The position numbers were made by a program, and so were the translations under genes. Under the pieces are notes generated by a model, which saw only the letters and a list, made by a program, of their open reading frames with translations, was not told the DNA's origin and made no database searches. A stretch of DNA of 64,000 bases from Escherichia coli (lineage in GTDB: Bacteria; Pseudomonadota; Gammaproteobacteria; Enterobacterales; Enterobacteriaceae), in NCBI RefSeq assembly GCF_001677475.2, contig NZ_CP015229.1; one strand, given 5' to 3'. The stretch's first letter is position 1, and each line of letters begins with the position of its first letter. Below are positions 3,345 through 18,378 of this stretch, piece by piece.

Positions 3345-3758
3345 TCAGATTCCCTCCCAAACTATATATCCTTTGTCTCTTGCCCAACAAACAACTGTGT
3401 GGGCTGTATATGTGGATGTGAAGCCGCAATAAGAACATGACACTTCATACCGAGTATTGTAGATGTTAATGGGCTCGTTCTCCTTGTGTATGGGAGTGAC
3501 ATATTCCCAATCATTTGAATCATCATAATCATCAAGTTCAGGGTCTGTGCCGTGAACAACCGTATGTGGAATAAACAAATCTAGGCGCCCACACGAGAGA
3601 CAAGAGGTTCTGGCTCCTCTATCTTTAAGGAATTGAATAAATAATTTGGGCGAAATCTGTTGCAGAACCTGCAAATGCCCACGTTCATTATCATTAAGAG
3701 ACCTGTCTGCATATGGAAAATCATCAAATTTAAGAGGCTTCATATAAGGCATCTCCAA
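3345..3758 (-). CDS. hypothetical Cys-rich protein (two CxxC motifs, possible zinc ribbon), prophage cargo
   Basis: 137-aa ORF immediately downstream of int, overlapping the int 3' end and followed without gap by the 176-aa ORF; start may be an internal Met (about 3743). Confidence 0.55.
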   Translation of the reverse strand: MEMPYMKPLKFDDFPYADRSLNDNERGHLQVLQQISPKLFIQFLKDRGARTSCLSCGRLDLFIPHTVVHGTDPELDDYDDSNDWEYVTPIHKENEPINIYNTRYEVSCSYCGFTSTYTAHTVVCWARDKGYIVWEGI

Positions 3759-4722
3759 GGGGATTAAATCTCACCGCATCCTGCAGGTAATCCGGCGCAA
3801 GATGGGCATAAATCATCGTTGTCTGAATCTTTGCGTGCCCCAGAATTTTCTGGAGCGTCAGAATATTGCCGCCGTTCATCATGAAATGACTGGCGAAGGT
3901 GTGGCGCAGCGCATGAACAGCCTGGCCGTCAGGAACATCAGGTGCGACCGTTTTGATGACATCGCGAACCAATGGATAATCCAGCGTCGGAAACACCAGT
4001 TTCCCGCCCCGTTTTTTGATCTTTTCAAACAGGCTTTCAGAAATAGGAACGGTACGGTTTTTGCTGTTCTTCGTTTTTGAAAAAGTGATTCGACAATGAA
4101 GAACACGGCGCTGCTCCAGTGCCGCTACCTCGCCCCATCGCGCCCCGGTCGACAGAAGGATTTCGACAGCCAGCCGTTCATCGGGATTTTCAGCCAGTGC
4201 ATCCAGCAACTGAACACATTCAGACTTACTCAGATATCCCATTTCGCGCTCGTTAACCTTCATTCCTTTAAGGCCTTGAACGGGGTTATCGTTAAGAAAA
4301 TGGCCGGATGAGATGAGTGCGGTAAACATCGCGCTTAACGCCCCAATCTCTCGATTTATGGTGCTGGGCTGTATCCCCTGCTCTATCCTGGACACACGTA
4401 GCTCGGTGAGCATCGTTGTATTAAGTTTATGCACGCACGGGTCATCCATTGCCTCACTCAAGCGCAGCAATTTAAGGCGCGTGTTATGCCCTGACTTCAT
4501 TAGCTGGCCGTGGTATTTCCACCACAAGTCAATAAGCACCGACAGCGGACGGCGATCAATGGAGTTTCCTTTCCACTCATTGTTATGCTGTTGCGCCAGC
4601 ACCCACCGCTCATATAAAACTGCATCCGATTTCGTTTTAAATTTTTTGCGAATGCGTTTGCCTTTACGCCCCTCCGGGCGCATGTCAAGAAGATACCCTC
4701 CCGGAATTGATTTTATGCTCAT
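3730..4722 (-). CDS. int: tyrosine integrase, P2 Int-like
   Basis: N-terminus MSIKSIPGGYLLDMRPEGRKGKRIRKKF... resembles P2 Int; C-terminal HxxR...Y catalytic region (HALRHTFASH...MIYAHL); start chosen at Met 51 of the longer ORF. Confidence 0.9.
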   Translation of the reverse strand: MSIKSIPGGYLLDMRPEGRKGKRIRKKFKTKSDAVLYERWVLAQQHNNEWKGNSIDRRPLSVLIDLWWKYHGQLMKSGHNTRLKLLRLSEAMDDPCVHKLNTTMLTELRVSRIEQGIQPSTINREIGALSAMFTALISSGHFLNDNPVQGLKGMKVNEREMGYLSKSECVQLLDALAENPDERLAVEILLSTGARWGEVAALEQRRVLHCRITFSKTKNSKNRTVPISESLFEKIKKRGGKLVFPTLDYPLVRDVIKTVAPDVPDGQAVHALRHTFASHFMMNGGNILTLQKILGHAKIQTTMIYAHLAPDYLQDAVRFNPLGDALYEAS

Positions 4723-4771
4723 TCGTGAAACCCCAGCGTTACAAGACCACCATGCCCCCAGCGCTCCATGA

Positions 4772-5083
4772 TTAGCCGGGCTGTGTGCCAGTCTTGCGGG
4801 GTTTTTGAGAAGGCGATGTGCTTTTTGGCCCATCAGGGGAGAGAGACGGACTGATCTGCCCAGCAGCCTCATTTGTTTCGTTACTCATCAACCACGTGGT
4901 GTATTTTTTAAAGTTCGGATGCATTGTGATTTTCAGTAAAACCTCCGTCCCCACACCTCTAATACCAGTCTCATATTGCTTAACTGTACCAACCGCAATA
5001 CCTATTGAATCCGCGAACTTTGCCTGGCTAAGTCCCTCAGATTCTCGAATTGCTTTTAGCTTCTTTGATATCTCTATTGACAT
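4772..5083 (-). CDS. C: immunity repressor, P2 C-like (HTH)
   Basis: 103-aa ORF upstream of int, divergent from cox; HTH and C-terminal tail resemble P2 C. Confidence 0.8.
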   Translation of the reverse strand: MSIEISKKLKAIRESEGLSQAKFADSIGIAVGTVKQYETGIRGVGTEVLLKITMHPNFKKYTTWLMSNETNEAAGQISPSLSPDGPKSTSPSQKPRKTGTQPG

Positions 5084-5178
5084 GGTGTGCACCTGAATAC
5101 TATATTGGTTATCAGTTGAGTACCACTTGACGCCACAAAAAGCCACAAATAGCACCAGATTGAATAGGTTATCACATC
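5084..5178. promoter_or_regulatory. lysis-lysogeny switch region (divergent Pc/Pe promoters and operator repeats)
   Basis: 95-bp gap between divergent C and cox; ggttatca direct repeats and a TTGACG -35-like hexamer. Confidence 0.5.
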
Positions 5179-7194: not shown

Positions 7195-7457
7195 CCATTC
7201 TGGACTACATCGCTACTCATCCGGGTTGTAGCGGCGGAGAGATCGCCGCAGCACTGAATACTCCAACCACAGCCATTAATGCTGAGTTACGCCAACTTTG
7301 GCGCGGCGGCTTAGTCATCAGAACAAACCGCAGCACAGGTGGTCGCGCTCGCAAAACTGGAGGCCAGGCTTCTTACCACGTAAACCCGATGCCGTTCGGG
7401 TGCGGCAATCCACTTACCAACATGTTTAACCAGCTACTGAAGGAAGCCAGAACATGA
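7191..7457 (+). CDS. hypothetical early protein, possible winged-helix DNA-binding fold
   Basis: 88-aa ORF, ATGA-coupled to neighbours. Confidence 0.5.
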   Translation: MTILDYIATHPGCSGGEIAAALNTPTTAINAELRQLWRGGLVIRTNRSTGGRARKTGGQASYHVNPMPFGCGNPLTNMFNQLLKEART

Positions 7458-7753
7458 GCACCATCAACCACCAGAAGCTACGCGAACTGGCATTTTCCCT
7501 GCAACGAATGGCAACGCCTCAAAAATTACTGGCGTTTCGCGCAATGCTCTCGCCGTCTGCTGTGCTGGCACTGCTGGATGAGCAGGAGCACGCCAGAACC
7601 ACGGCTCCTGCCATTCGCCTGACACTCCATCATGAAATTGCTGATTTCTGCGCGACGCTGGAGGCACCAGGCGAACCGGAAACGCCGGAAGCAATACAGC
7701 AAGAGCTGCTGCAACGCATTGACAAGGTTTTTGATTTTTTTCTGAACCACTAA
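7454..7753 (+). CDS. hypothetical early protein
   Basis: 99-aa ORF, ATGA-coupled. Confidence 0.5.
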   Translation: MSTINHQKLRELAFSLQRMATPQKLLAFRAMLSPSAVLALLDEQEHARTTAPAIRLTLHHEIADFCATLEAPGEPETPEAIQQELLQRIDKVFDFFLNH

Positions 7754-7875
7754 GAAACCAGAACATGCACACACAAAAAAACCGCTTGCCATGCCGCAAT
7801 CAGTCAGGTTACATTTCCGCTGCACCTCATAAAACGGGTGCCGGGTTTCGCAGCCTGCTAACTACACAAGCGCAC

Positions 7876-7897
7876 AACCGCGCCAGCGGTTTTTTTG
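7876..7897 (+). terminator. putative intrinsic terminator (accgc-gcca-gcggt stem followed by a T run)
   Basis: GC hairpin followed by tttttttg on the plus strand, within the 7754-8075 non-coding gap. Confidence 0.5.
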
Positions 7898-8075
7898 TGC
7901 GTACTGTATTGCCACGTTTTTTTCGCGCCAGAATTATGGCGGGGCGTACGGGGCCGACTTCGGTCGGGCCGGGTTCTTGTGTAGCCGGTACTGCGAACCT
8001 CGTACGTCTCGCCACCCACAGTTTCGCAGCTCTGGATGGTAAGTTTTCACAACTTACTACACAAGAGGCCACACC

Positions 8076-8306
8076 ATGGCAAACCGCAAACAACAGCGCG
8101 CATACGCTGCGCGTCGTCACATCCAGACTGAAATCAACCGCAGACTTTCCCGCGCATTCCGCGTCACTAAAATCATGCACATCAATATGCTGCATGAGCG
8201 TAGCTGCGAACTTTCAAACCTCTATTCATCCGCTGTTTTCAGCTATCTGGCGGATGATCTGCGCGAGCTTCAGCAGCTCATCCAGCAGCAAAACAAACTC
8301 CATTAA
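8076..8306 (+). CDS. hypothetical protein
   Basis: 76-aa basic ORF after the structured gap. Confidence 0.45.
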   Translation: MANRKQQRAYAARRHIQTEINRRLSRAFRVTKIMHINMLHERSCELSNLYSSAVFSYLADDLRELQQLIQQQNKLH

Positions 8307-8378
8307 TTCCTGTTCCGGGCCTTTCCTGCACCTTGCGGCGGGAGGCCTTCGCACATCTGTAGTAAAGAGAATTGCAGC

Positions 8379-8768
8379 ATGATTGACGCTCATGACTTCA
8401 CAAGATGGGTGCGCACACAGGACACCCGTCTGGCTCCCGTTCTTCAGGGATTATTTGATCTTTACATCCGTGGTCGTGACAACAGAGCACGCACTACAAA
8501 ACCGGAGAATGCGGACACCCTTTATTTCACAGTAGACGACTGCTACCGCGTGGACTTCACACCACACGGGCTGGCGTTGCACTGCCTGACACCACACGGC
8601 GAATCACTGCTGGCGTATTACGACTCCCCGGCCTCCGTATTTGCGGCAATGCTGGCGCATCGCACTGCTGGCGGGTGTGCCTCGCTGAGTGAATACACCG
8701 CTGAATTTAACCGCCTTTCCGCCATCTTCTCGCAGGAGTGGCAGCGCGTGACGGGATACCAGCCATGA
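8379..8768 (+). CDS. hypothetical protein; stop overlaps start of gene A
   Basis: 129-aa ORF; ATGA overlap at 8765-8768. Confidence 0.5.
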   Translation: MIDAHDFTRWVRTQDTRLAPVLQGLFDLYIRGRDNRARTTKPENADTLYFTVDDCYRVDFTPHGLALHCLTPHGESLLAYYDSPASVFAAMLAHRTAGGCASLSEYTAEFNRLSAIFSQEWQRVTGYQP

Positions 8769-11605
8769 GTGAGTTTGCATGGAGCTGGAATGAACCACGG
8801 CCAGCCATTGATCCGGCCAGATTTACGGAGCGCAGGCAGGAAACTGAAACCGACCTGCAACGCGCCATCCGTTACTACCTTGAGGCAGACAAAAGGGCAC
8901 AGGAAGAACAGGAAGCGAAGGAAGAAGCCTTTTTCGCACAATCCACCGTGGGTAAAAAACTCATGGCATCCCTTGAGGAAGCCGGACAGCGTGAAAAGCT
9001 GGCACAGAGCATCATCAGTAAGCGCCGGGCAACAGAACAAGACACGGTAGCCCGTGCCTTTGCCACACTAAAGGCACTACCTGTTTATCTGCGTGAACCA
9101 CTGAGCCGCCACCTCTCTTTCCTGCGCAAAAAACAGGAAGCCGATCGCCGGAAAGGCAAAAAGAGCTGGCAGGCGGAACGCTATGCACGCGGAACCCTGC
9201 GCAAAATATTCGAACGTCTGGACCGCACCGACAGCCGCTGGCTGACACCGGGTTATCGCGCCCTTGCCGGACGCGAACGCCTGGACGATTTGCTTTACCT
9301 GCCGCAGCTCAACAAACACCAGATACAGACGCTGGCCACCATGACAGCGGCGATGTTCAGCAGCACCTTCGAAAAACTCTGCGATGGCTTTGGCGCGACT
9401 GATGGCGAGCTGACCATGGATGTAACGCTGAAGGCGTATCAGATGCTGGCCCGCATGGCGTTACACCTGCACGCCATGCCTCCGCATTATGACGTACTGA
9501 CAACAGACAAAGACCGGAGGAACGAACCAGACACAGAACTGCTGCCGGGCGCAATCCTTCGCCTGACCTGTGCGGAATGGTGGAAACGCAAACTGTGGCT
9601 GTTACGTTGCGAGTGGCGGGAAGAACAACTCCGAGCCGCCTGTCTGGTTTCCAGAAAAACATCGCCCTATCTGAGCCAGGACGCGTTAAGCGAGTTTCGC
9701 GCACAGCGCGAGAAAACACGCGATTTCCTGAAAAGTTTCATGCTGGAAAATGAAGACGGGTTCACGATTGATCTCGAGACGGTGTATTACGCGGGAGTAA
9801 GTAACCCGGTTCACCGTAAGGCAGAAATGATGGCCACCATGAAGGGACTGGAACTTCTGGCCGAAGCCCGTGGCGACAGAGCGGTGTTTCTGACCGTCAC
9901 CTGCCCGTCAAAATACCACGCAACAACGGAGAACGGTCATCCGAACCCCAAATGGAACGGGGCCACCATGCGCGACTCCAGCGATTACCTGGTTAACACG
10001 TTTTTTGCGGCGGTCCGCAAAAAACTGAACCGCGACGGCCTGCGCTGGTATGGCATCCGCACGGTGGAGCCTCACCATGACGGCACTGTGCACTGGCATA
10101 TGATGGTCTTTGCACATCCGGACGAGATTGAAACCATCGTGTCCCACGTCTGCGATATTGCCATTCAGGAGGACCGCCACGAGCTGGGCGATGACATAAC
10201 TCCGCGTTTTAAGGCGGAGTATGTCGACGGCTCAAAAGGCACACCAACCAGCTACATCGCCACCTACATCGGAAAGAACTTGGACAGCCGCGCCGTGGAT
10301 GGCATCGACCCGAAAACGGGCAAGCCACGCGTTGACCACGAAACCGGAAAATCAATGGCCGAGAGCGTGGAGCGCGCCATCGGCTGGGCGCGCCTTCACC
10401 GGGTCCGTCAGTTCCAGTTCTTTGGCATCCCCTCCCGTCAGGTGTGGCGTGAACTGCGCCGCCTTGCCAGCCAGATGGCACGCAATCCGGAAGGCCCGCA
10501 ACGGCTGAAAGATGATGCAATGGATGCGGTACTCGCTGCCGCCGATGCCGGGTGTTTTGCCACCTACATTGAAAAACAGGGTGGCGTGCTTGTTCCACGC
10601 AAGGACTACCTGATTCGCACCGCCTACGACCTCGCAGATGAGCTGAACGATTACGGCGAACAGAGCGTACAGATTTACGGGATCTGGTCACCACTCATCG
10701 GGGAATCCTCCCGTGTGTGCACGCATCCGGATAACTGGAAGTTGGTAAGACGTAAACCAGAACCGGAAGACAACGCCCACGAAAATGGTTTTGACCTTCA
10801 GGGCGGCCCTGCCGCCCCTTGGACTCGTGGCAATAACTGTCCCCGTGTACAGGAAACGGACAATAACGGGACAGAACTGCCGGAAGAACGGCCAGCACCG
10901 TGGCCGCAGCTCCCTGACGGCGTTGAAGTGAACGAATGGATGCGCTCACTGAAACAGCACGAACGCCGGGCGCTGATGCGTTCGCTTCGTGACAAACAGG
11001 CAAAAAACAGCAGTGATGAAATGCAGAGCTGGACACAGAGCCGCAAACAGCAGCGGCCTTTGCCTGATAACCACGAATTACTCGCTAAAGAATGGCGGGA
11101 GTCTGCTGAATCTCTCGGCCTGCATATCGGTGAACAACAGATGCAGCACCTGTTACGGGGCGGCAGCCTGTACGTTGACGGCAGCATCATTGCACCGCAG
11201 GGATTTGAAATTGTACGCAAACCGGATACCCGCCCGGACAGCCGAATCACGCAGCTCTGGCAGCGCCTGAGCCGTAATCATGGCGTAAGCAGCACGGAGA
11301 TCCGCCATAACCCGGTCGCCAGCTATCTGGCACAGCTGGGGGCATCAGACCCTGAAGTCGCCGCACGCCTGGCATCCACACTTCAGCAGGACCAGAACAC
11401 CATGAAAACACCCGTTACCGTGCTTTCTGACATGCTGCGCGCCATCCGCGACGCAGAGCACGCACAGAGAATCAGTGAAACCACTGAACGCGCCCGCCGC
11501 AAAGCAGACCTGCTGCGGGGTGGCCTGACCAGTGGAAACAAAAAACAGACAGAAACGGGACTCATGAATCCCGTAAATGAGCAAAAAACGCGCAGCGATA
11601 TATGA
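8765..11605 (+). CDS. A: replication initiation endonuclease, P2 gpA-like (rolling-circle HUH nickase) with long C-terminal extension
   Basis: HUH-type motif in GTVHWHMMVFAHPD; position after early genes; 946 aa from ATG 8765. Confidence 0.85.
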   Translation: MSEFAWSWNEPRPAIDPARFTERRQETETDLQRAIRYYLEADKRAQEEQEAKEEAFFAQSTVGKKLMASLEEAGQREKLAQSIISKRRATEQDTVARAFATLKALPVYLREPLSRHLSFLRKKQEADRRKGKKSWQAERYARGTLRKIFERLDRTDSRWLTPGYRALAGRERLDDLLYLPQLNKHQIQTLATMTAAMFSSTFEKLCDGFGATDGELTMDVTLKAYQMLARMALHLHAMPPHYDVLTTDKDRRNEPDTELLPGAILRLTCAEWWKRKLWLLRCEWREEQLRAACLVSRKTSPYLSQDALSEFRAQREKTRDFLKSFMLENEDGFTIDLETVYYAGVSNPVHRKAEMMATMKGLELLAEARGDRAVFLTVTCPSKYHATTENGHPNPKWNGATMRDSSDYLVNTFFAAVRKKLNRDGLRWYGIRTVEPHHDGTVHWHMMVFAHPDEIETIVSHVCDIAIQEDRHELGDDITPRFKAEYVDGSKGTPTSYIATYIGKNLDSRAVDGIDPKTGKPRVDHETGKSMAESVERAIGWARLHRVRQFQFFGIPSRQVWRELRRLASQMARNPEGPQRLKDDAMDAVLAAADAGCFATYIEKQGGVLVPRKDYLIRTAYDLADELNDYGEQSVQIYGIWSPLIGESSRVCTHPDNWKLVRRKPEPEDNAHENGFDLQGGPAAPWTRGNNCPRVQETDNNGTELPEERPAPWPQLPDGVEVNEWMRSLKQHERRALMRSLRDKQAKNSSDEMQSWTQSRKQQRPLPDNHELLAKEWRESAESLGLHIGEQQMQHLLRGGSLYVDGSIIAPQGFEIVRKPDTRPDSRITQLWQRLSRNHGVSSTEIRHNPVASYLAQLGASDPEVAARLASTLQQDQNTMKTPVTVLSDMLRAIRDAEHAQRISETTERARRKADLLRGGLTSGNKKQTETGLMNPVNEQKTRSDI

Positions 11606-11681: not shown

Positions 11682-12641
11682 ATGAAAATTTGTATCGACG
11701 ACGGCTCCACCAACATCAAGCTGGCATGGACTGAGAACGGCGAACGCCGCAACGCCATCAGCCCGAACAGCTTCAAGTCGGAATGGTCTGCGCCGTTCGG
11801 TGGCACGCAGCCCGCGAACTACATGCTTGATGGCGTGCGCTATGGTTTTGATCCGGTCAGCGATCGCTTTGTCCAGACGACCGACACGCAATACCAGTAC
11901 AGCGATGTGAATGTCATTGCCATTCATCACGCGCTGGTCAAATCAGGCATCACGCCACAGGAGGTGGATGTGGTTGTCACCCTGCCACTGAGCGAGTATT
12001 TCGACACAAACGCACAGCCGGACATGGCCAACATCAACCGCAAAAAAGCGAACGTTATGCGCCCGGTGGAGTACCAGAACGGCGAAGCATTCACTATCCG
12101 TAACGTGCGGGTTATGCCTGAATCCATTCCGGCTGGCTTTAAGGCACTGGCTGACATGAGTCCGTTTGAATCCCTGCTGATTGTAGATTTGGGCGGAACC
12201 ACGCTGGATGTGGCAAAGGTTCAGGGGCAACTGGCAGGTATCAGCCAGGTGTTTTGCGATCCACACGTAGGCGTTTCTCTGATGGCCGATGCCGTACTGT
12301 CGGTGATGGCCACTAACGGTATGCGCACCAGTCACCACATCGCCAATACCATTATCGAACATCGCCATAATGAAGCCTGGCTGCGCCAGCACATCCACAA
12401 TGACGCGCATTACGCCAGCCTGATGGAGGTTATTCGTGAAAAGGAAGAAACACTGAAACAACGCGTGATCCGCGCGCTGGCGGGTTTTTCGGGTTACGGG
12501 CGGGTGATGGTTGTCGGTGGAGGGGCGGAGATTGTGGCACCCGCTATCCGCGAAGCCTGCGGAGTTCATGCGACTTTCATCGCGGACGGGGTGCCACAGT
12601 TTGCTCTGGTTAATGGGCTGTACGCAATGGACAAGGAGTAA
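11682..12641 (+). CDS. parM: actin-like segregation ATPase, ParM/StbA family
   Basis: 319 aa; motifs IDDGSTNIKL, ISPNSFK, VMPESIPAG, DLGGTTLD, GGGAE, VNGLY parallel plasmid R1 ParM as recalled. Confidence 0.8.
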   Translation: MKICIDDGSTNIKLAWTENGERRNAISPNSFKSEWSAPFGGTQPANYMLDGVRYGFDPVSDRFVQTTDTQYQYSDVNVIAIHHALVKSGITPQEVDVVVTLPLSEYFDTNAQPDMANINRKKANVMRPVEYQNGEAFTIRNVRVMPESIPAGFKALADMSPFESLLIVDLGGTTLDVAKVQGQLAGISQVFCDPHVGVSLMADAVLSVMATNGMRTSHHIANTIIEHRHNEAWLRQHIHNDAHYASLMEVIREKEETLKQRVIRALAGFSGYGRVMVVGGGAEIVAPAIREACGVHATFIADGVPQFALVNGLYAMDKE

Positions 12642-12645
12642 ACCA

Positions 12646-12957
12646 ATGACGACACCAACCAGACGGATAAGTTTCTATCTGAAGCCTGCGGCCGTCAAGA
12701 ACGAAAGCGAAGCATGCGCCTGGCTGGACAGCCTTACACCAGAAGCCCGCAAAAGCGGCCAACGCGTGGCTTTTCTGGCCGGGCTGGCACTTCTGAAAAT
12801 GAATCCGGCAGAGGCTTACCGACTGGCTGCATGGGCTGACGATGAGGCGTTATCAGTGACACAAACCAGGACAGAATGCCCCGCGTCACAGCCAGTATCA
12901 ACCGCACAGATAACCAGTCAGATGGCCGGAAATATCCGGGCGTTATTTCCCGAATAA
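12646..12957 (+). CDS. parR: ParR/StbB-like partition adaptor (DNA-binding)
   Basis: 103 aa directly after parM; RRISFYLKP...LDSLTPEARKS...AFLAGLALL and C-terminal NIRALFPE resemble R1 ParR as recalled. Confidence 0.65.
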   Translation: MTTPTRRISFYLKPAAVKNESEACAWLDSLTPEARKSGQRVAFLAGLALLKMNPAEAYRLAAWADDEALSVTQTRTECPASQPVSTAQITSQMAGNIRALFPE

Positions 12958-15580: not shown

Positions 15581-16627
15581 TCACGGGGCTGTTTTTTCAT
15601 CAAGAAGAGCATAAGAATTAAAACGGATCACCTCTTCGCCAAGCCAGTCATTGATATGCTTCATAGCCTCCATGACGGGCATCAGCTCGTTAATTGCGTA
15701 AACCCGCGCGGCCTTCTCCACATCACCAAACGCACTTTTTTCACCCGGCATCGCCCCCATCAGTTGCGGCGGAACGCGGTGCGCAGCCAGCACATCATCA
15801 CGGGATGCCGCCTTAACATTCATGAACTCATCCTTTGCGGTGATCTGCTGGAACGGCAAAATTTGCACCCCCTCTTTGCCCCCGTTGGGCGCATGAATGA
15901 GCACGTTTTTAAACGCACCACCACCACGCGCACCCTGTAGCGTTTCTTTCAGGGAGTCCATGCTTTCGCGGTTTACCTGCGCTGCACCGATGTAGATGAT
16001 GCACCCGGCGTGGGATCCGTTGTCGTAATACAGTTTTCTGAACATGTCCGCCGAATGAGACAGGCTGGCCGAGAGTAATGCGCCGAGATATTCCGGCATG
16101 CCGTAGATTTCCTGGTTAATGTCAGGATTCATCAGGTGGCACACTTTGCTTGGGCGAAACTGAAACGCGTCCTTGCCATCCTGCACATACCACCATGATT
16201 CAAGATCGCTTCCGCGTCGCATGTATTTCGCCAGGGCGTGCCGTAATTTAAGCGGTTCGCCGAGCATATTGCTTCGAAGCTCAAGGAATGCGTTACCGAA
16301 CACAAACCAGTCCAGCGCCAGCGCCGAGAAATCCTGCCGGGAAAGCAGCGGGTGCGGGATGTAGCAACCGAGTAATACATTGCGCTTAAAGTAAAGCGCA
16401 GACTGATGCCAGGACGTTTGCCGGGCAGCTCTTGCCAGACCGTACCAGTCCACCGGGGTTTCATACCACCGCCCGTTATCAGCACAGTACATATTGTCCA
16501 GCAGGTCATGCCCGGTCAGGCGATAAGGACCATCAAATGTGAATGCACTGAGCGATGATTCTTTCCTGAGCGCATCAGCGAGATCAATGCGTGAACTCAT
16601 GCGCACTTTTTTATTTTTTCTGCTCAT
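15581..16627 (-). CDS. Q: portal protein, P2 gpQ-like
   Basis: 348 aa; position and orientation as P2 Q, overlapping P. Confidence 0.85.
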   Translation of the reverse strand: MSRKNKKVRMSSRIDLADALRKESSLSAFTFDGPYRLTGHDLLDNMYCADNGRWYETPVDWYGLARAARQTSWHQSALYFKRNVLLGCYIPHPLLSRQDFSALALDWFVFGNAFLELRSNMLGEPLKLRHALAKYMRRGSDLESWWYVQDGKDAFQFRPSKVCHLMNPDINQEIYGMPEYLGALLSASLSHSADMFRKLYYDNGSHAGCIIYIGAAQVNRESMDSLKETLQGARGGGAFKNVLIHAPNGGKEGVQILPFQQITAKDEFMNVKAASRDDVLAAHRVPPQLMGAMPGEKSAFGDVEKAARVYAINELMPVMEAMKHINDWLGEEVIRFNSYALLDEKTAP

Positions 16628-18378
16628 CAGAACTCCATAACCGTGAAACGCTCGTTTTCTCCTTCGCCGCCAATCGGTTCGTTAATGACAGCAAGCATGG
16701 TTGCCCACGCAAGGTCGCCGTGGCTGATCCCCCTCGCGCGGTCCGTTTCGTAAGTGATAAAGCCGCCCGGTGTTTTCACCTTACGCACGGCGTTAAAGGC
16801 CGCGACCAGCTCGCGTTCGGCGCGATCGTATTCCCAGCGCCCGGCACGCATTATTTGCAGCATTTTCAGTACCAGCGACCGTTTTGATGACAGCGTGAAG
16901 GTGTACGGAATAGCAGCAGGGAAAAACCGTTTCACTATCTGATAAACAGCCTCCCCGTTCCCGCCCGTCACATCAATGCCGATGTGTTCCACGTTGTAGC
17001 GATACGTGAACTCTTCAATGACTCTGGCCTGTTCTTCAAACTCCAGCCCCTGAACGCGTCGCGTCTCCACCGTTCGAAAACGGCCACCAGGAACAGCCGG
17101 AGGAACCACCACGGACACAGCGCCGCTGTCGCCGTTGCCACTGCTGCCGTTTGCGTCATACCCAATCCATACCAGACGATTCCCCATCGGGCGGGGAGCA
17201 AAAGGTTTCCAGTCTTTCCAGTCGTCGTATCCGTCAACACCGCAGCCAATCAGGATATTCAGGTTAAATGCCGATTCCCCTTCGCGAACAAACTCACACA
17301 TATAGAGATTGAGGAACTCGTCTTCGGTGTTTTCATCACGGATTTCGTCAATATCGGTGTGTTTCCAGCCGTGATTAACCACATCTTCCAGCGTGACAAT
17401 TTGCCGCCACGTCCGGTCAGGGCAGATAAGCCCGTTATGCAGCGTTTTCCAGTCCACAGAAAAACGCTGGCGTTTATGCGAGGCCTTTTTCTCGTTCCAG
17501 CGGTCGCCGTTCCAGTAGGCGTATGCCTCGTGCGTTTCGGTGGATGGCGTGGAGAAGTAGGTGCGCCGCAGTCCGCTGAGGGTTGCCATAGCGCCAGCCA
17601 CCTTGCGCAGTTCAGCAAAGCGACTGACCCAGAAAAATTCATCAAAATAAAAATTGCCCGTATAGGACTGTGCCGACGCAGCAGAAGTGCCGAGAAAATG
17701 CAGCTCTGCGCCGTTGGAGAGGATGATTTTATCGCCCCCTTTCAGCTCCACATCAACTTCAGCCGCGGCCTTCTGAATAATGCTTTTAAACTGGAACGCC
17801 TGACGACGCGACGCAGACAAAAAAATCTGGTTACGCTGGTAAGGTTGCGCCACATCGTCACGCAGCGCCATCAGCAGCGCTTCCTGTGCAAAATACCAGG
17901 TTGCCCCAATCTGTCGGGATTTCAGGATCATCCTGTTACGTATCCCGGCTTCCCTGCAAAGGGTCAGGGAGTCAAACCAGCCCCGCTGATGCCACTCCAG
18001 CCTGCTGATGATTTTTTCCCGCAGTGCGGCAATCTGTTCCGGCGTGAAATGATTTTTGAGTTTTTTCGCCCGGCCTTTCTTTCCTGCGGCCATCACATCC
18101 GGCTGGCCATCATGCAGCTTTTTAAGCTGCCGGGTCAGCAGGTCTATTTCCTTAAAGTCACCGCCTGTTTTATTCTGTTTTTCAGTAAGCTGGATGAGGC
18201 GCGCATCGATGGACTGCGTGACACGCTGCACGGGTGGCGCTTCATCCCACTGGTCGCGTTTTTTCCACGCATAAATCGTGTTCGGGTTTATTCCCATCAG
18301 ACGTGATATTTCTGCGGGCGGATAACCCTGCCAGTAAAGTTGCCGCGCACGCTGGCGCACAAAAGCGTCCTGAATCAT
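16627..18378 (-). CDS. P: terminase large (ATPase) subunit, P2 gpP-like
   Basis: 583 aa; synteny with Q; divergent from O. Confidence 0.85.
   Translation of the reverse strand: MIQDAFVRQRARQLYWQGYPPAEISRLMGINPNTIYAWKKRDQWDEAPPVQRVTQSIDARLIQLTEKQNKTGGDFKEIDLLTRQLKKLHDGQPDVMAAGKKGRAKKLKNHFTPEQIAALREKIISRLEWHQRGWFDSLTLCREAGIRNRMILKSRQIGATWYFAQEALLMALRDDVAQPYQRNQIFLSASRRQAFQFKSIIQKAAAEVDVELKGGDKIILSNGAELHFLGTSAASAQSYTGNFYFDEFFWVSRFAELRKVAGAMATLSGLRRTYFSTPSTETHEAYAYWNGDRWNEKKASHKRQRFSVDWKTLHNGLICPDRTWRQIVTLEDVVNHGWKHTDIDEIRDENTEDEFLNLYMCEFVREGESAFNLNILIGCGVDGYDDWKDWKPFAPRPMGNRLVWIGYDANGSSGNGDSGAVSVVVPPAVPGGRFRTVETRRVQGLEFEEQARVIEEFTYRYNVEHIGIDVTGGNGEAVYQIVKRFFPAAIPYTFTLSSKRSLVLKMLQIMRAGRWEYDRAERELVAAFNAVRKVKTPGGFITYETDRARGISHGDLAWATMLAVINEPIGGEGENERFTVMEF

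Follow-up and report, generated by a model that had tools for sequence, protein, structure and literature searches.

What is encoded between positions 7754 and 8075 of the 64,000-nucleotide (nt) stretch of Escherichia coli DNA analyzed here (the window; contig NZ_CP015229.1 of assembly GCF_001677475.2), where the otherwise tightly packed early genes of a P2-like prophage are interrupted by a gap? The gap is bounded by the stop codon of a 99-amino-acid (aa) open reading frame (ORF; 7454-7753) and the ATG, at 8076, of a 76-aa ORF. An original prediction, made from the letters of the window, had described it as a structured, non-coding interval and had suggested a transcriptional boundary, a small RNA, or a replication or regulatory site. 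We conclude that the gap is almost certainly an IsrK-C4 antisense cassette. It is also likely that the wider explanation holds, namely that this is an RNA-based immunity cassette of the P4, P1/P7, N15 and Gifsy-1 type lying within the early operon. The case is carried by the membership of two RNAs in known families, their anatomy, exact complementarity between recognition and target sites, the overlap of one target with a ribosome-binding site, and covariation between RNA and targets.

An Rfam scan, which the original prediction had proposed, found isrK and C4 antisense RNA in the gap, both on the plus strand and both over their gathering scores, and these two families bear out its suggestion of a small RNA. 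The transcribed elements are as follows.

7786-7815, plus strand: predicted sigma-70-like promoter, TTGCCA, 18-nt spacer, TACATT, with a predicted start (~7822) that coincides with the IsrK-like RNA's 5' end.
7822-7896, plus strand: IsrK/P4 seqA-like leader RNA (Rfam RF01394), with two hairpins, a single-stranded linker and an intrinsic terminator.
7876-7897, plus strand: intrinsic terminator of the IsrK-like RNA, with a 6-bp stem, a GCCA loop and T7.
7932-8019, plus strand: C4/P4 CI-like antisense RNA (Rfam RF01695), with a 17-bp outer stem, two inner hairpins and 3' CCACCC.

Both matches cover their models from end to end: isrK (RF01394) scored 66.5 bits against a gathering score of 50 (E 2.4e-13, model positions 1-77 of 77), and C4 (RF01695) scored 83.2 bits against 45 (E 3.5e-16, model positions 1-87 of 87). 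The predicted fold of the IsrK-like RNA agrees with the family consensus, and the minimum free energy (MFE) fold of the C4-like RNA equals that of its family. The 88-nt C4 region has an MFE of -47.7 kcal/mol (z = -4.46), and 0 of 200 shuffled sequences were as good. Two structures that had been noticed earlier are present and now find a place in this anatomy. The terminator-like hairpin with its T run at 7876-7897 (AACCGC-GCCA-GCGGTT, then T7) closes the IsrK-like RNA at its 3' end, and the UUCG hairpin (CCGAC-UUCG-GUCGG, at 7954-7967) is the first inner hairpin of the C4-like RNA. The second inner hairpin, at 7968-7989, exposes a recognition element designated a', and a further element, b', lies in the single-stranded junction. 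As judged by eye from an alignment rather than by scanning, hexamers resembling -35 and -10 elements are equally placed before the 5' end of the IsrK-like RNA in P4 and in the lambdoid phage ASU11. A second promoter-like site in the window, at 7909-7937, was rejected as a chance match; its -35 element is not conserved and its predicted start falls within the outer stem of C4.

Each recognition element has two exact complements within the gap, one upstream in the IsrK-like RNA and one downstream, before the 76-aa ORF.

7975-7984, plus strand: a' recognition loop, TCTTGTGTAG, in the loop of the second C4 hairpin.
7862-7870, plus strand: a1 target, CTACACAAG, in the single-stranded linker of the IsrK-like RNA, an exact complement of a' over 9 nt.
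8057-8066, plus strand: a2 target, CTACACAAGA, an exact complement of a' over 10 nt that overlaps the Shine-Dalgarno sequence AAGAGG.
7991-7997, plus strand: b' recognition element, CTGCGAA, in the single-stranded C4 junction.
7847-7853, plus strand: b1 target, TTCGCAG, in the loop of IsrK hairpin 2, an exact complement of b' over 7 nt.
8023-8029, plus strand: b2 target, TTCGCAG, an exact complement of b' over 7 nt.
8039-8057, plus strand: spacer hairpin, GTAAGTT-TTCAC-AACTTAC, between b2 and a2.

The 9-mer of the a set occurs exactly three times in the 64-kb window, each time within the gap, and the Shine-Dalgarno sequence at 8063-8068 lies 7 nt before the ATG at 8076. These antisense sites, with a2 overlapping the downstream Shine-Dalgarno sequence, support the earlier notion of a regulatory site. 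The 7-bp inverted repeat ctgcgaa/ttcgcag, which had been listed among the structures of the gap, does consist of exact complements at 7991-7997 and 8023-8029; it forms no hairpin, however, and is rather the antisense element b' and its target b2. The third copy of TTCGCAG at 7847-7853, the a'/a1/a2 series that makes up the main recognition set, and the link to the downstream ribosome-binding site had been overlooked. The spacer hairpin would set the distance between b2 and a2 to about that between b1 and a1. By eye, its pairing potential is kept by a different sequence (GGTGA...TCACC) in a divergent class of cassettes, and P4 carries ATAGC...GCTAT at the same position. A possible third C4 target at the start of a downstream gene, orf129 (a-like at 8396-8404 and b-like at 8347-8353, with one mismatch each), was dismissed as chance matches because both sites are unchanged in cassettes of other specificity classes.

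The covariation analysis across homologous prophages that the original prediction had also proposed shows that the structures are kept and that the changes within them are compensatory. Each of 80 IMG/VR loci encoding relatives of the 76-aa protein has the same cassette of ~300 nt, at 85 to 98% identity, and 40 distinct cassette sequences were aligned. Little or no variation touches the promoter hexamers, the terminator or the C4 stems: both hexamers are unchanged, the terminator stem is unchanged in 40 of 40 cassettes, and the C4 stems are 100% paired, with compensatory changes at two pairs of the outer stem and two pairs of hairpin 1. The 3' CCACCC of C4 and its acceptor-like stem, the visible traits that bear on maturation of such RNAs from a longer precursor (by RNase P at the 5' end), are likewise unchanged. 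Variation is concentrated in the six a/b blocks, where 35 of 50 columns vary, compared with 80 of 246 elsewhere. All nine a1-a' pairs are kept in every sequence, seven having changed on both sides, as are all seven b1-b' pairs, four of them changed on both sides; together, 11 of these 16 pairs are altered on both sides. The covariation score for a1-a' and b1-b' was 0.692, compared with 0.126 in shuffled alignments, and was reached by 0 of 500 shuffles. When the register was slid, pairing dropped to 28 to 52% in all slid registers. The downstream targets behave in the same manner, with a'-a2 95.5% paired (six pairs changed on both sides) and b'-b2 100% paired (four pairs changed on both sides).

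The cassettes fall into 19 (a', b') classes that arise from 13 a' types and 6 b' types, which reassort, and each type is matched by its own targets. Pairing of a cassette with itself extends over 16 to 17 of 17 positions, and non-self pairing has a mean of 11.5. Read from the alignment, this coordinated variation, in which compensatory change is combined with hypervariable a/b blocks, is the signature of what we take to be a trans-acting antisense RNA with hetero-immune specificities. In one locus, L068 (IMGVR_UViG_2582580934_000004, ~58-396), a 17-nt insertion in the a' hairpin resembles a partial duplication joining two different a' types, TCTTTGCTCTCCGGTG and TTCTTGTGTAG; this sequence is possibly a recombination intermediate between specificity classes.

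The genes placed behind the downstream targets are as follows.

8076-8306, plus strand: homologue of the P4 epsilon (E) anti-repressor, 76 aa (Pfam PF25738 Derepression), the first gene under the proposed C4 control.
8379-8768, plus strand: orf129, downstream in the same transcription unit.
8738-11605 (longest ORF), plus strand: replication endonuclease gpA (Pfam Phage_GPA, 432 bits), the true start of which is probably slightly later.

The 76-aa protein matches the Derepression family with 29.7 bits (cutoff 27) and, by BLASTP, shares 33% identity over 51 aa with P4 epsilon (E 3e-9). Its counterpart in phage P88 carries the annotation "derepression protein", and no solved structure for the epsilon-like protein was found. 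The order epsilon-like gene, orf129, gpA is the same in P88 and its relatives. No icd/ant genes of the P1 immI type were found downstream of C4, where the ORFs match the Derepression family or nothing, and a proposed homology of orf129 to P4 orf151 was rejected, as none was found. The anti-repressor P4 epsilon binds the C repressor of P2 (PMC2995052). A candidate partner is encoded divergently, at 4772-5155 on the minus strand, by a repressor gene of the P2 C family (E 1e-16 to PDB 2L49/2XCJ), the product of which shares the C-terminal KYTxW...GQ(I/V)xP motif region with P2 C. Because homology to P2 C begins only at Met24, the true start of this repressor is probably an internal ATG, giving a protein of ~103 aa rather than the 127-aa GTG-initiated ORF.

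From these elements the following scheme can be proposed. A constitutive promoter at 7786-7815 would direct transcription from ~7822, and most transcripts would end at the terminator at 7876-7897, yielding a 75-nt IsrK/seqA-like RNA that exposes b1 and a1. Read-through transcripts would contain the C4/CI-like RNA (7932-8019), which by analogy with P1 and P4 would be excised from the precursor. Its a' and b' elements would pair with a2 and b2 on the mRNA, a2 covering the Shine-Dalgarno sequence of the epsilon-like gene, and translation of that gene would be blocked; through the loss of translation-transcription coupling, expression of orf129 and gene A would also be reduced. The b1 and a1 sites of the IsrK-like RNA would compete for the C4 loops, as a decoy or as a controller of termination, so that the balance of IsrK to C4 would set the switch. 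The 76-aa protein, once made, would inactivate the C-type repressor. The net result would be a second, sequence-specific layer of immunity beside the P2 C-type repressor, keeping the anti-repressor and replication genes silent both in the lysogen and in homo-immune superinfecting phage. Resting on analogy with the known systems, the downstream steps of this scheme (C4 processing, translational block with polarity, an IsrK decoy, and anti-repressor activity against the prophage's own C) are probable, though less so than the identity of the cassette itself.

A number of observations weigh against this scheme. The predicted promoter matches the consensus at only 9 of 12 positions, and the IsrK-like RNA taken alone is thermodynamically not unusual (z = -1.19). 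The Rfam model of the upstream target region, RF03163 c4-a1b1, fell well short of its gathering score of 46.7, at 20.4 bits; P4 itself reaches only 44.1 bits on this model, and the a1 and b1 sites are directly supported by complementarity and covariation despite the low score. The cassette also sits in an operon that requires read-through for expression of gene A. Finally, the epsilon-like protein is 83 to 96% conserved while the linked C repressors share 30 to 100% identity; with epsilon conserved and C diverse, a strictly self-specific pair of anti-repressor and repressor is not evident. The idea that the epsilon-like protein co-varies with its own C repressor is unsupported by this difference in conservation, though the comparison is not decisive.

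A further difficulty concerns the output of the cassette. In P4, whose layout and gene content come closest, what has been documented is premature, CI-RNA-dependent termination of transcription and not a pure translational block (PMC4825925). The same cassette might therefore act here in a P4-like manner, with C4 pairing mainly causing transcription to end prematurely, whether at the IsrK terminator, at Rho-dependent sites or at both, and with occlusion of the ribosome-binding site secondary. The position of a1, which ends just 5 nt before the terminator stem, and the constancy of that terminator throughout the 40 cassettes fit such an output. Yet overlap of a2 with the Shine-Dalgarno sequence, seen in every class and also in P4, is the hallmark of a translational block of the P1 type. 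In P1 the translational block triggers Rho-dependent termination, so a P1-type block and P4-type termination are not exclusive. Termination as the main output is judged a minority possibility, to be taken seriously but unlikely as stated.

Read-through of the terminator is also the subject of a second, tentative proposal, which concerns a sequence just upstream of the promoter.

7769-7789, plus strand: upstream element, ACACACAAAAAAACCGCTTGC, complementary at 19 of 21 positions to 7882-7902.

The complementary segment, 7882-7902, consists of the terminator loop, 3' arm and U-tract with five further nt, and forms a 21-nt inverted repeat with 7769-7789. Because transcription from the cassette's own promoter would begin downstream of the element, only early-operon transcripts contain it. 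Almost all of the P88-like cassettes examined have a 15- to 16-nt core in the same place, and a 10-nt exact core is retained in the divergent cassettes L106, L168 and L204; the element is absent from every P4-like cassette examined. In predicted folds of long transcripts, pairing of the element with the 3' arm of the terminator beats any fold that keeps the terminator by 5 to 14 kcal/mol, a preference seen in the window and in four variants, divergent ones included. The element may, hypothetically, be an anti-terminator and/or an A-tract UP element. It is conceivable, if doubtful, that the P88-type cassette has been adapted to a mid-operon position, with 7769-7789 sequestering the terminator so that early transcripts would read through and transcripts from the cassette's own promoter would terminate. 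Against an anti-terminator, the local 5' arm of the terminator is kinetically favoured, and the A7 tract alone could be an UP element; covariation gives no test of the pairing because both arms are invariant. If true, a terminator that depends on the promoter of origin would let early transcripts reach the anti-repressor and replication genes. Near 7901-7920 a LexA box was considered by eye and rejected; only a half-site is present, and it is variable among homologues.

Regulation of the element's own genes, as in the scheme above, must also be weighed against action on other elements. When IMG/VR was scanned with a pattern for the C4 core, 120 cassettes were recovered, of which 43 were P88-like (having the epsilon-like gene, plus gpA wherever the contig reaches far enough) and about 60 were P4-like (having the alpha primase). 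The two groups have a common architecture and are both hypervariable in a' and b'; moreover, Barquist et al. speculated that prophage IsrK-C4 systems might protect against satellites (PMC3632133). On this basis the cassette could be mainly a weapon between elements, C4 silencing P4-like satellites or satellite CI RNAs silencing the epsilon and A genes of the phage. However, no (a', b') class was common to the P88-like and P4-like groups among the 120 cassettes, and each cassette matches its own cis targets at 16 to 17 of 17 positions, which points to self-regulation and homo-immunity. We consider a primary role as a weapon very unlikely.

Still less credible is the reading that the gap codes for a protein, with the RNA features incidental. 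The earlier description of the interval as non-coding needs qualification in that a mechanically called ORF of 205 aa (7765-8382) spans it, corresponding to an "Ash family" protein and to the historical P4 "cI gene product"; the evidence nevertheless favours RNA. In favour of a protein, 37 of 40 variants keep the frame open, a GenBank record describes the region as "similar to ash family protein", and the ORF scores 25.8 bits with Pfam PF10554 Phage_ASH, to which the old P4 cI ORF matches with 59.7 bits. That score of 25.8 falls below the Pfam cutoff of 26, however, no NCBIfam match to the ORF was found, and 3 of the 40 variants have stops or frameshifts. The region of the start codon is not conserved across cassettes, and 231 nt of the ORF are shared, in a different frame, with the epsilon-like gene. 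Variable columns show no bias in codon position (25/29/26), the substitutions are RNA-compensatory, and the P4 immunity factor is an RNA (PMC4825925). Our conclusion is that the "Ash" protein is a legacy of the way in which an RNA gene was annotated. Pfam PF10554 and the labels "ash family protein" and, in P4, "cI gene product, transcriptional repressor" appear to model a translated C4/CI RNA gene; the counterpart of the Ash ORF in a P4 locus lies at 8168-8584 on the minus strand of L084.

Weakest of all, and close to excluded, is a plain operon boundary with incidental GC-rich hairpins and no trans-acting RNA, or else a replication origin: the canonical terminator is present, and to that extent the suggested transcriptional boundary is real, but two Rfam families match above threshold, covariation across six blocks is incompatible with incidental hairpins, the gap has no iterons (its only repeats being the a/b sites and the terminator-related repeat) and no AT-rich unwinding element, which leaves the suggested replication site without support, and the P2-family origin lies inside gene A.

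The element that carries the IsrK-C4 cassette is a P88-type P2-like prophage, a full phage rather than a satellite. It occupies ~3.7 to 38.3 kb of the window and adjoins pheST. The integrase gene is at 3730-4872 on the minus strand, early genes run on the plus strand starting at ~5.2 kb, and, as read from the ORF layout, portal and terminase genes lie at 15581-18378 (minus strand), with tail genes extending to ~37.4 kb. Among these integrase, portal, terminase and tail readings, the integrase and the tail baseplate hub GPD are the ones confirmed by Pfam. A 701-nt query comprising the cassette and its flanks (7700-8400) shares 94 to 96% identity with complete genomes of the Xuanwuvirus/P88-type phages PhiR44_2, P884B11 and vB_EcoM-569R5 and 88% with P88 itself. 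The element does not belong with the P4-like satellites: its downstream replication gene is Phage_GPA instead of an alpha primase-helicase, and portal, terminase and tail genes are apparent.

Within this family of phages the cassette behaves as a mosaic module. The left edge of the conserved cassette is sharp, at ~7772, and the genes upstream differ among relatives (loci L001 and L205): to the left of the cassette are found an Ead/Ea22-like gene here, a lipoprotein gene annotated "serine protease" in P88 and a gene for a DNA-binding protein in Citrobacter phage Shae_phiSM. Directly behind the replication gene, at 11682-12954, lies a ParM gene (StbA_N, 275 bits; ParM C-terminal domain, 227 bits) together with a gene for a plasmid-stability StbB-like protein, and P88 has the same arrangement. 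The presence of plasmid partition genes in an integrated P2-like phage is notable, since the elements otherwise known for immunity by a C4-type RNA, P1, P7, N15 and P4, are phage-plasmids.

In the host part of the window, pheT (39825-42212) shares no more than 98.7% identity with any of 5,426 complete E. coli genomes, among which no full-length cassette match of at least 99% was found; the host may fall outside those E. coli lineages that are often sequenced. Rfam matches there comprise the Phe leader upstream of pheST (74.4 bits, 43420-43544, minus strand) and the small RNA STnc540 (42.8 bits, 39427-39579, minus strand), both expected chromosomal features. No tRNA or tmRNA was found in the window by ARAGORN.

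The cassette is present in 1,282 of the 5,426 complete E. coli genomes, about a quarter. Among the matches listed, the dozen best-matching genomes have no annotation under the cassette, and phage records call the region "hypothetical protein" or "ash family protein". No paper describing the cassette in P88 or Xuanwuvirus phages was found in the literature. The mechanism class is textbook for P1, P4 and N15; the cassette in this P88-type prophage is previously unannotated and represents no new kind of mechanism. Its practical value is one of annotation. Identification of the cassette accounts for how P2-like prophages of the P88 type could control an anti-repressor and their replication gene. 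The classes described above also lead to the prediction of 19 or more immunity specificities that are set by RNA and reassort without regard to the protein repressor. That a module known from the satellite P4 is found in helper-type phages as well bears on the exchange of regulatory modules between satellites and helpers, and a helper-type phage with an epsilon homologue behind a CI-type RNA would imply a common origin for the immunity/derepression module of P4 and the induction module of the helper family itself.

Among the known systems, that of N15 can be compared from its description. According to the passage of PMC3632133 that cites it, a small processed C4-type RNA, CB, controls the anti-repressor operon antA/B/C of N15. 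The anti-repressor genes differ from the one in the window, and the likeness is drawn from this description.

The isrK-orf45 (STnc1160)-anrP locus of the Salmonella prophage Gifsy-1 resembles the arrangement proposed for the window in having an IsrK with its own promoter and a leaky terminator, a processed downstream RNA complementary with IsrK, and an anti-repressor whose control is exerted where ribosomes bind the first ORF downstream; terminator read-through, the processed downstream RNA and control of the anti-repressor at the ribosome-binding site have all been described there (PMC4825925). Gifsy-1 is lambdoid, however, and its anti-repressor AnrP is unrelated to epsilon. Short IsrK of Gifsy-1 has been shown to activate translation in trans, whereas activation by the IsrK-like RNA of the window, as a decoy for C4, is only inferred.

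In the immI region of P1 and P7 (c4-icd-ant), an antisense RNA of the same Rfam family is made from the same transcript as its target. As in the window, it has two recognition elements with sites upstream (a1/b1) and downstream (a2/b2), the latter over a ribosome-binding site, at which c4 RNA blocks synthesis of the anti-repressor (PMC12197685). The guarded gene is likewise that of an anti-repressor, and differences in specificity result in hetero-immunity. In contrast, the window lacks icd/ant homologues, guards an epsilon-like protein, and has an IsrK-type terminated leader and a downstream replication gene.

P4 (NC_001609) provides the nearest comparison. Its differences from the window lie mainly in the surrounding element: P4 is a satellite, whereas the window holds a full P2-like phage with an integrase, a P2 C-type repressor, gpA, capsid and tail genes, and the replication gene encodes a gpA rolling-circle nickase instead of the alpha primase-helicase of P4. 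The epsilon-like gene of the window directly follows a2, whereas P4 has a leader ORF of ~65 codons coupled to epsilon; orf129 is unrelated to P4 orf151; and the cassette lies in the middle of an early operon with its terminator-complementary upstream element, which P4-like cassettes are without. The immunity region of P4 has the order PLE promoter, seqA, cI/CI RNA (seqB), seqC, epsilon, orf151, alpha, and in the window seqA-like, CI-like and seqC-like elements are likewise followed by an epsilon-family gene and then a replication gene. P4 carries the same two Rfam families in the same order on a shared strand, in its case the minus strand, where isrK scores 60.8 bits at 8615-8692 and C4 scores 74.9 bits at 8420-8507. 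Its b1/a1 and b2/a2 sites are identically placed, with a spacer hairpin and with a2 over the Shine-Dalgarno sequence (AGGAGG and ATG in P4). IsrK and C4 have been regarded as structural homologues of P4 seqA and CI RNA and termed an "IsrK-C4 immunity system" (PMC3632133), and a three-way alignment of the window, P4 and the lambdoid phage ASU11 shows the same blocks in all three.

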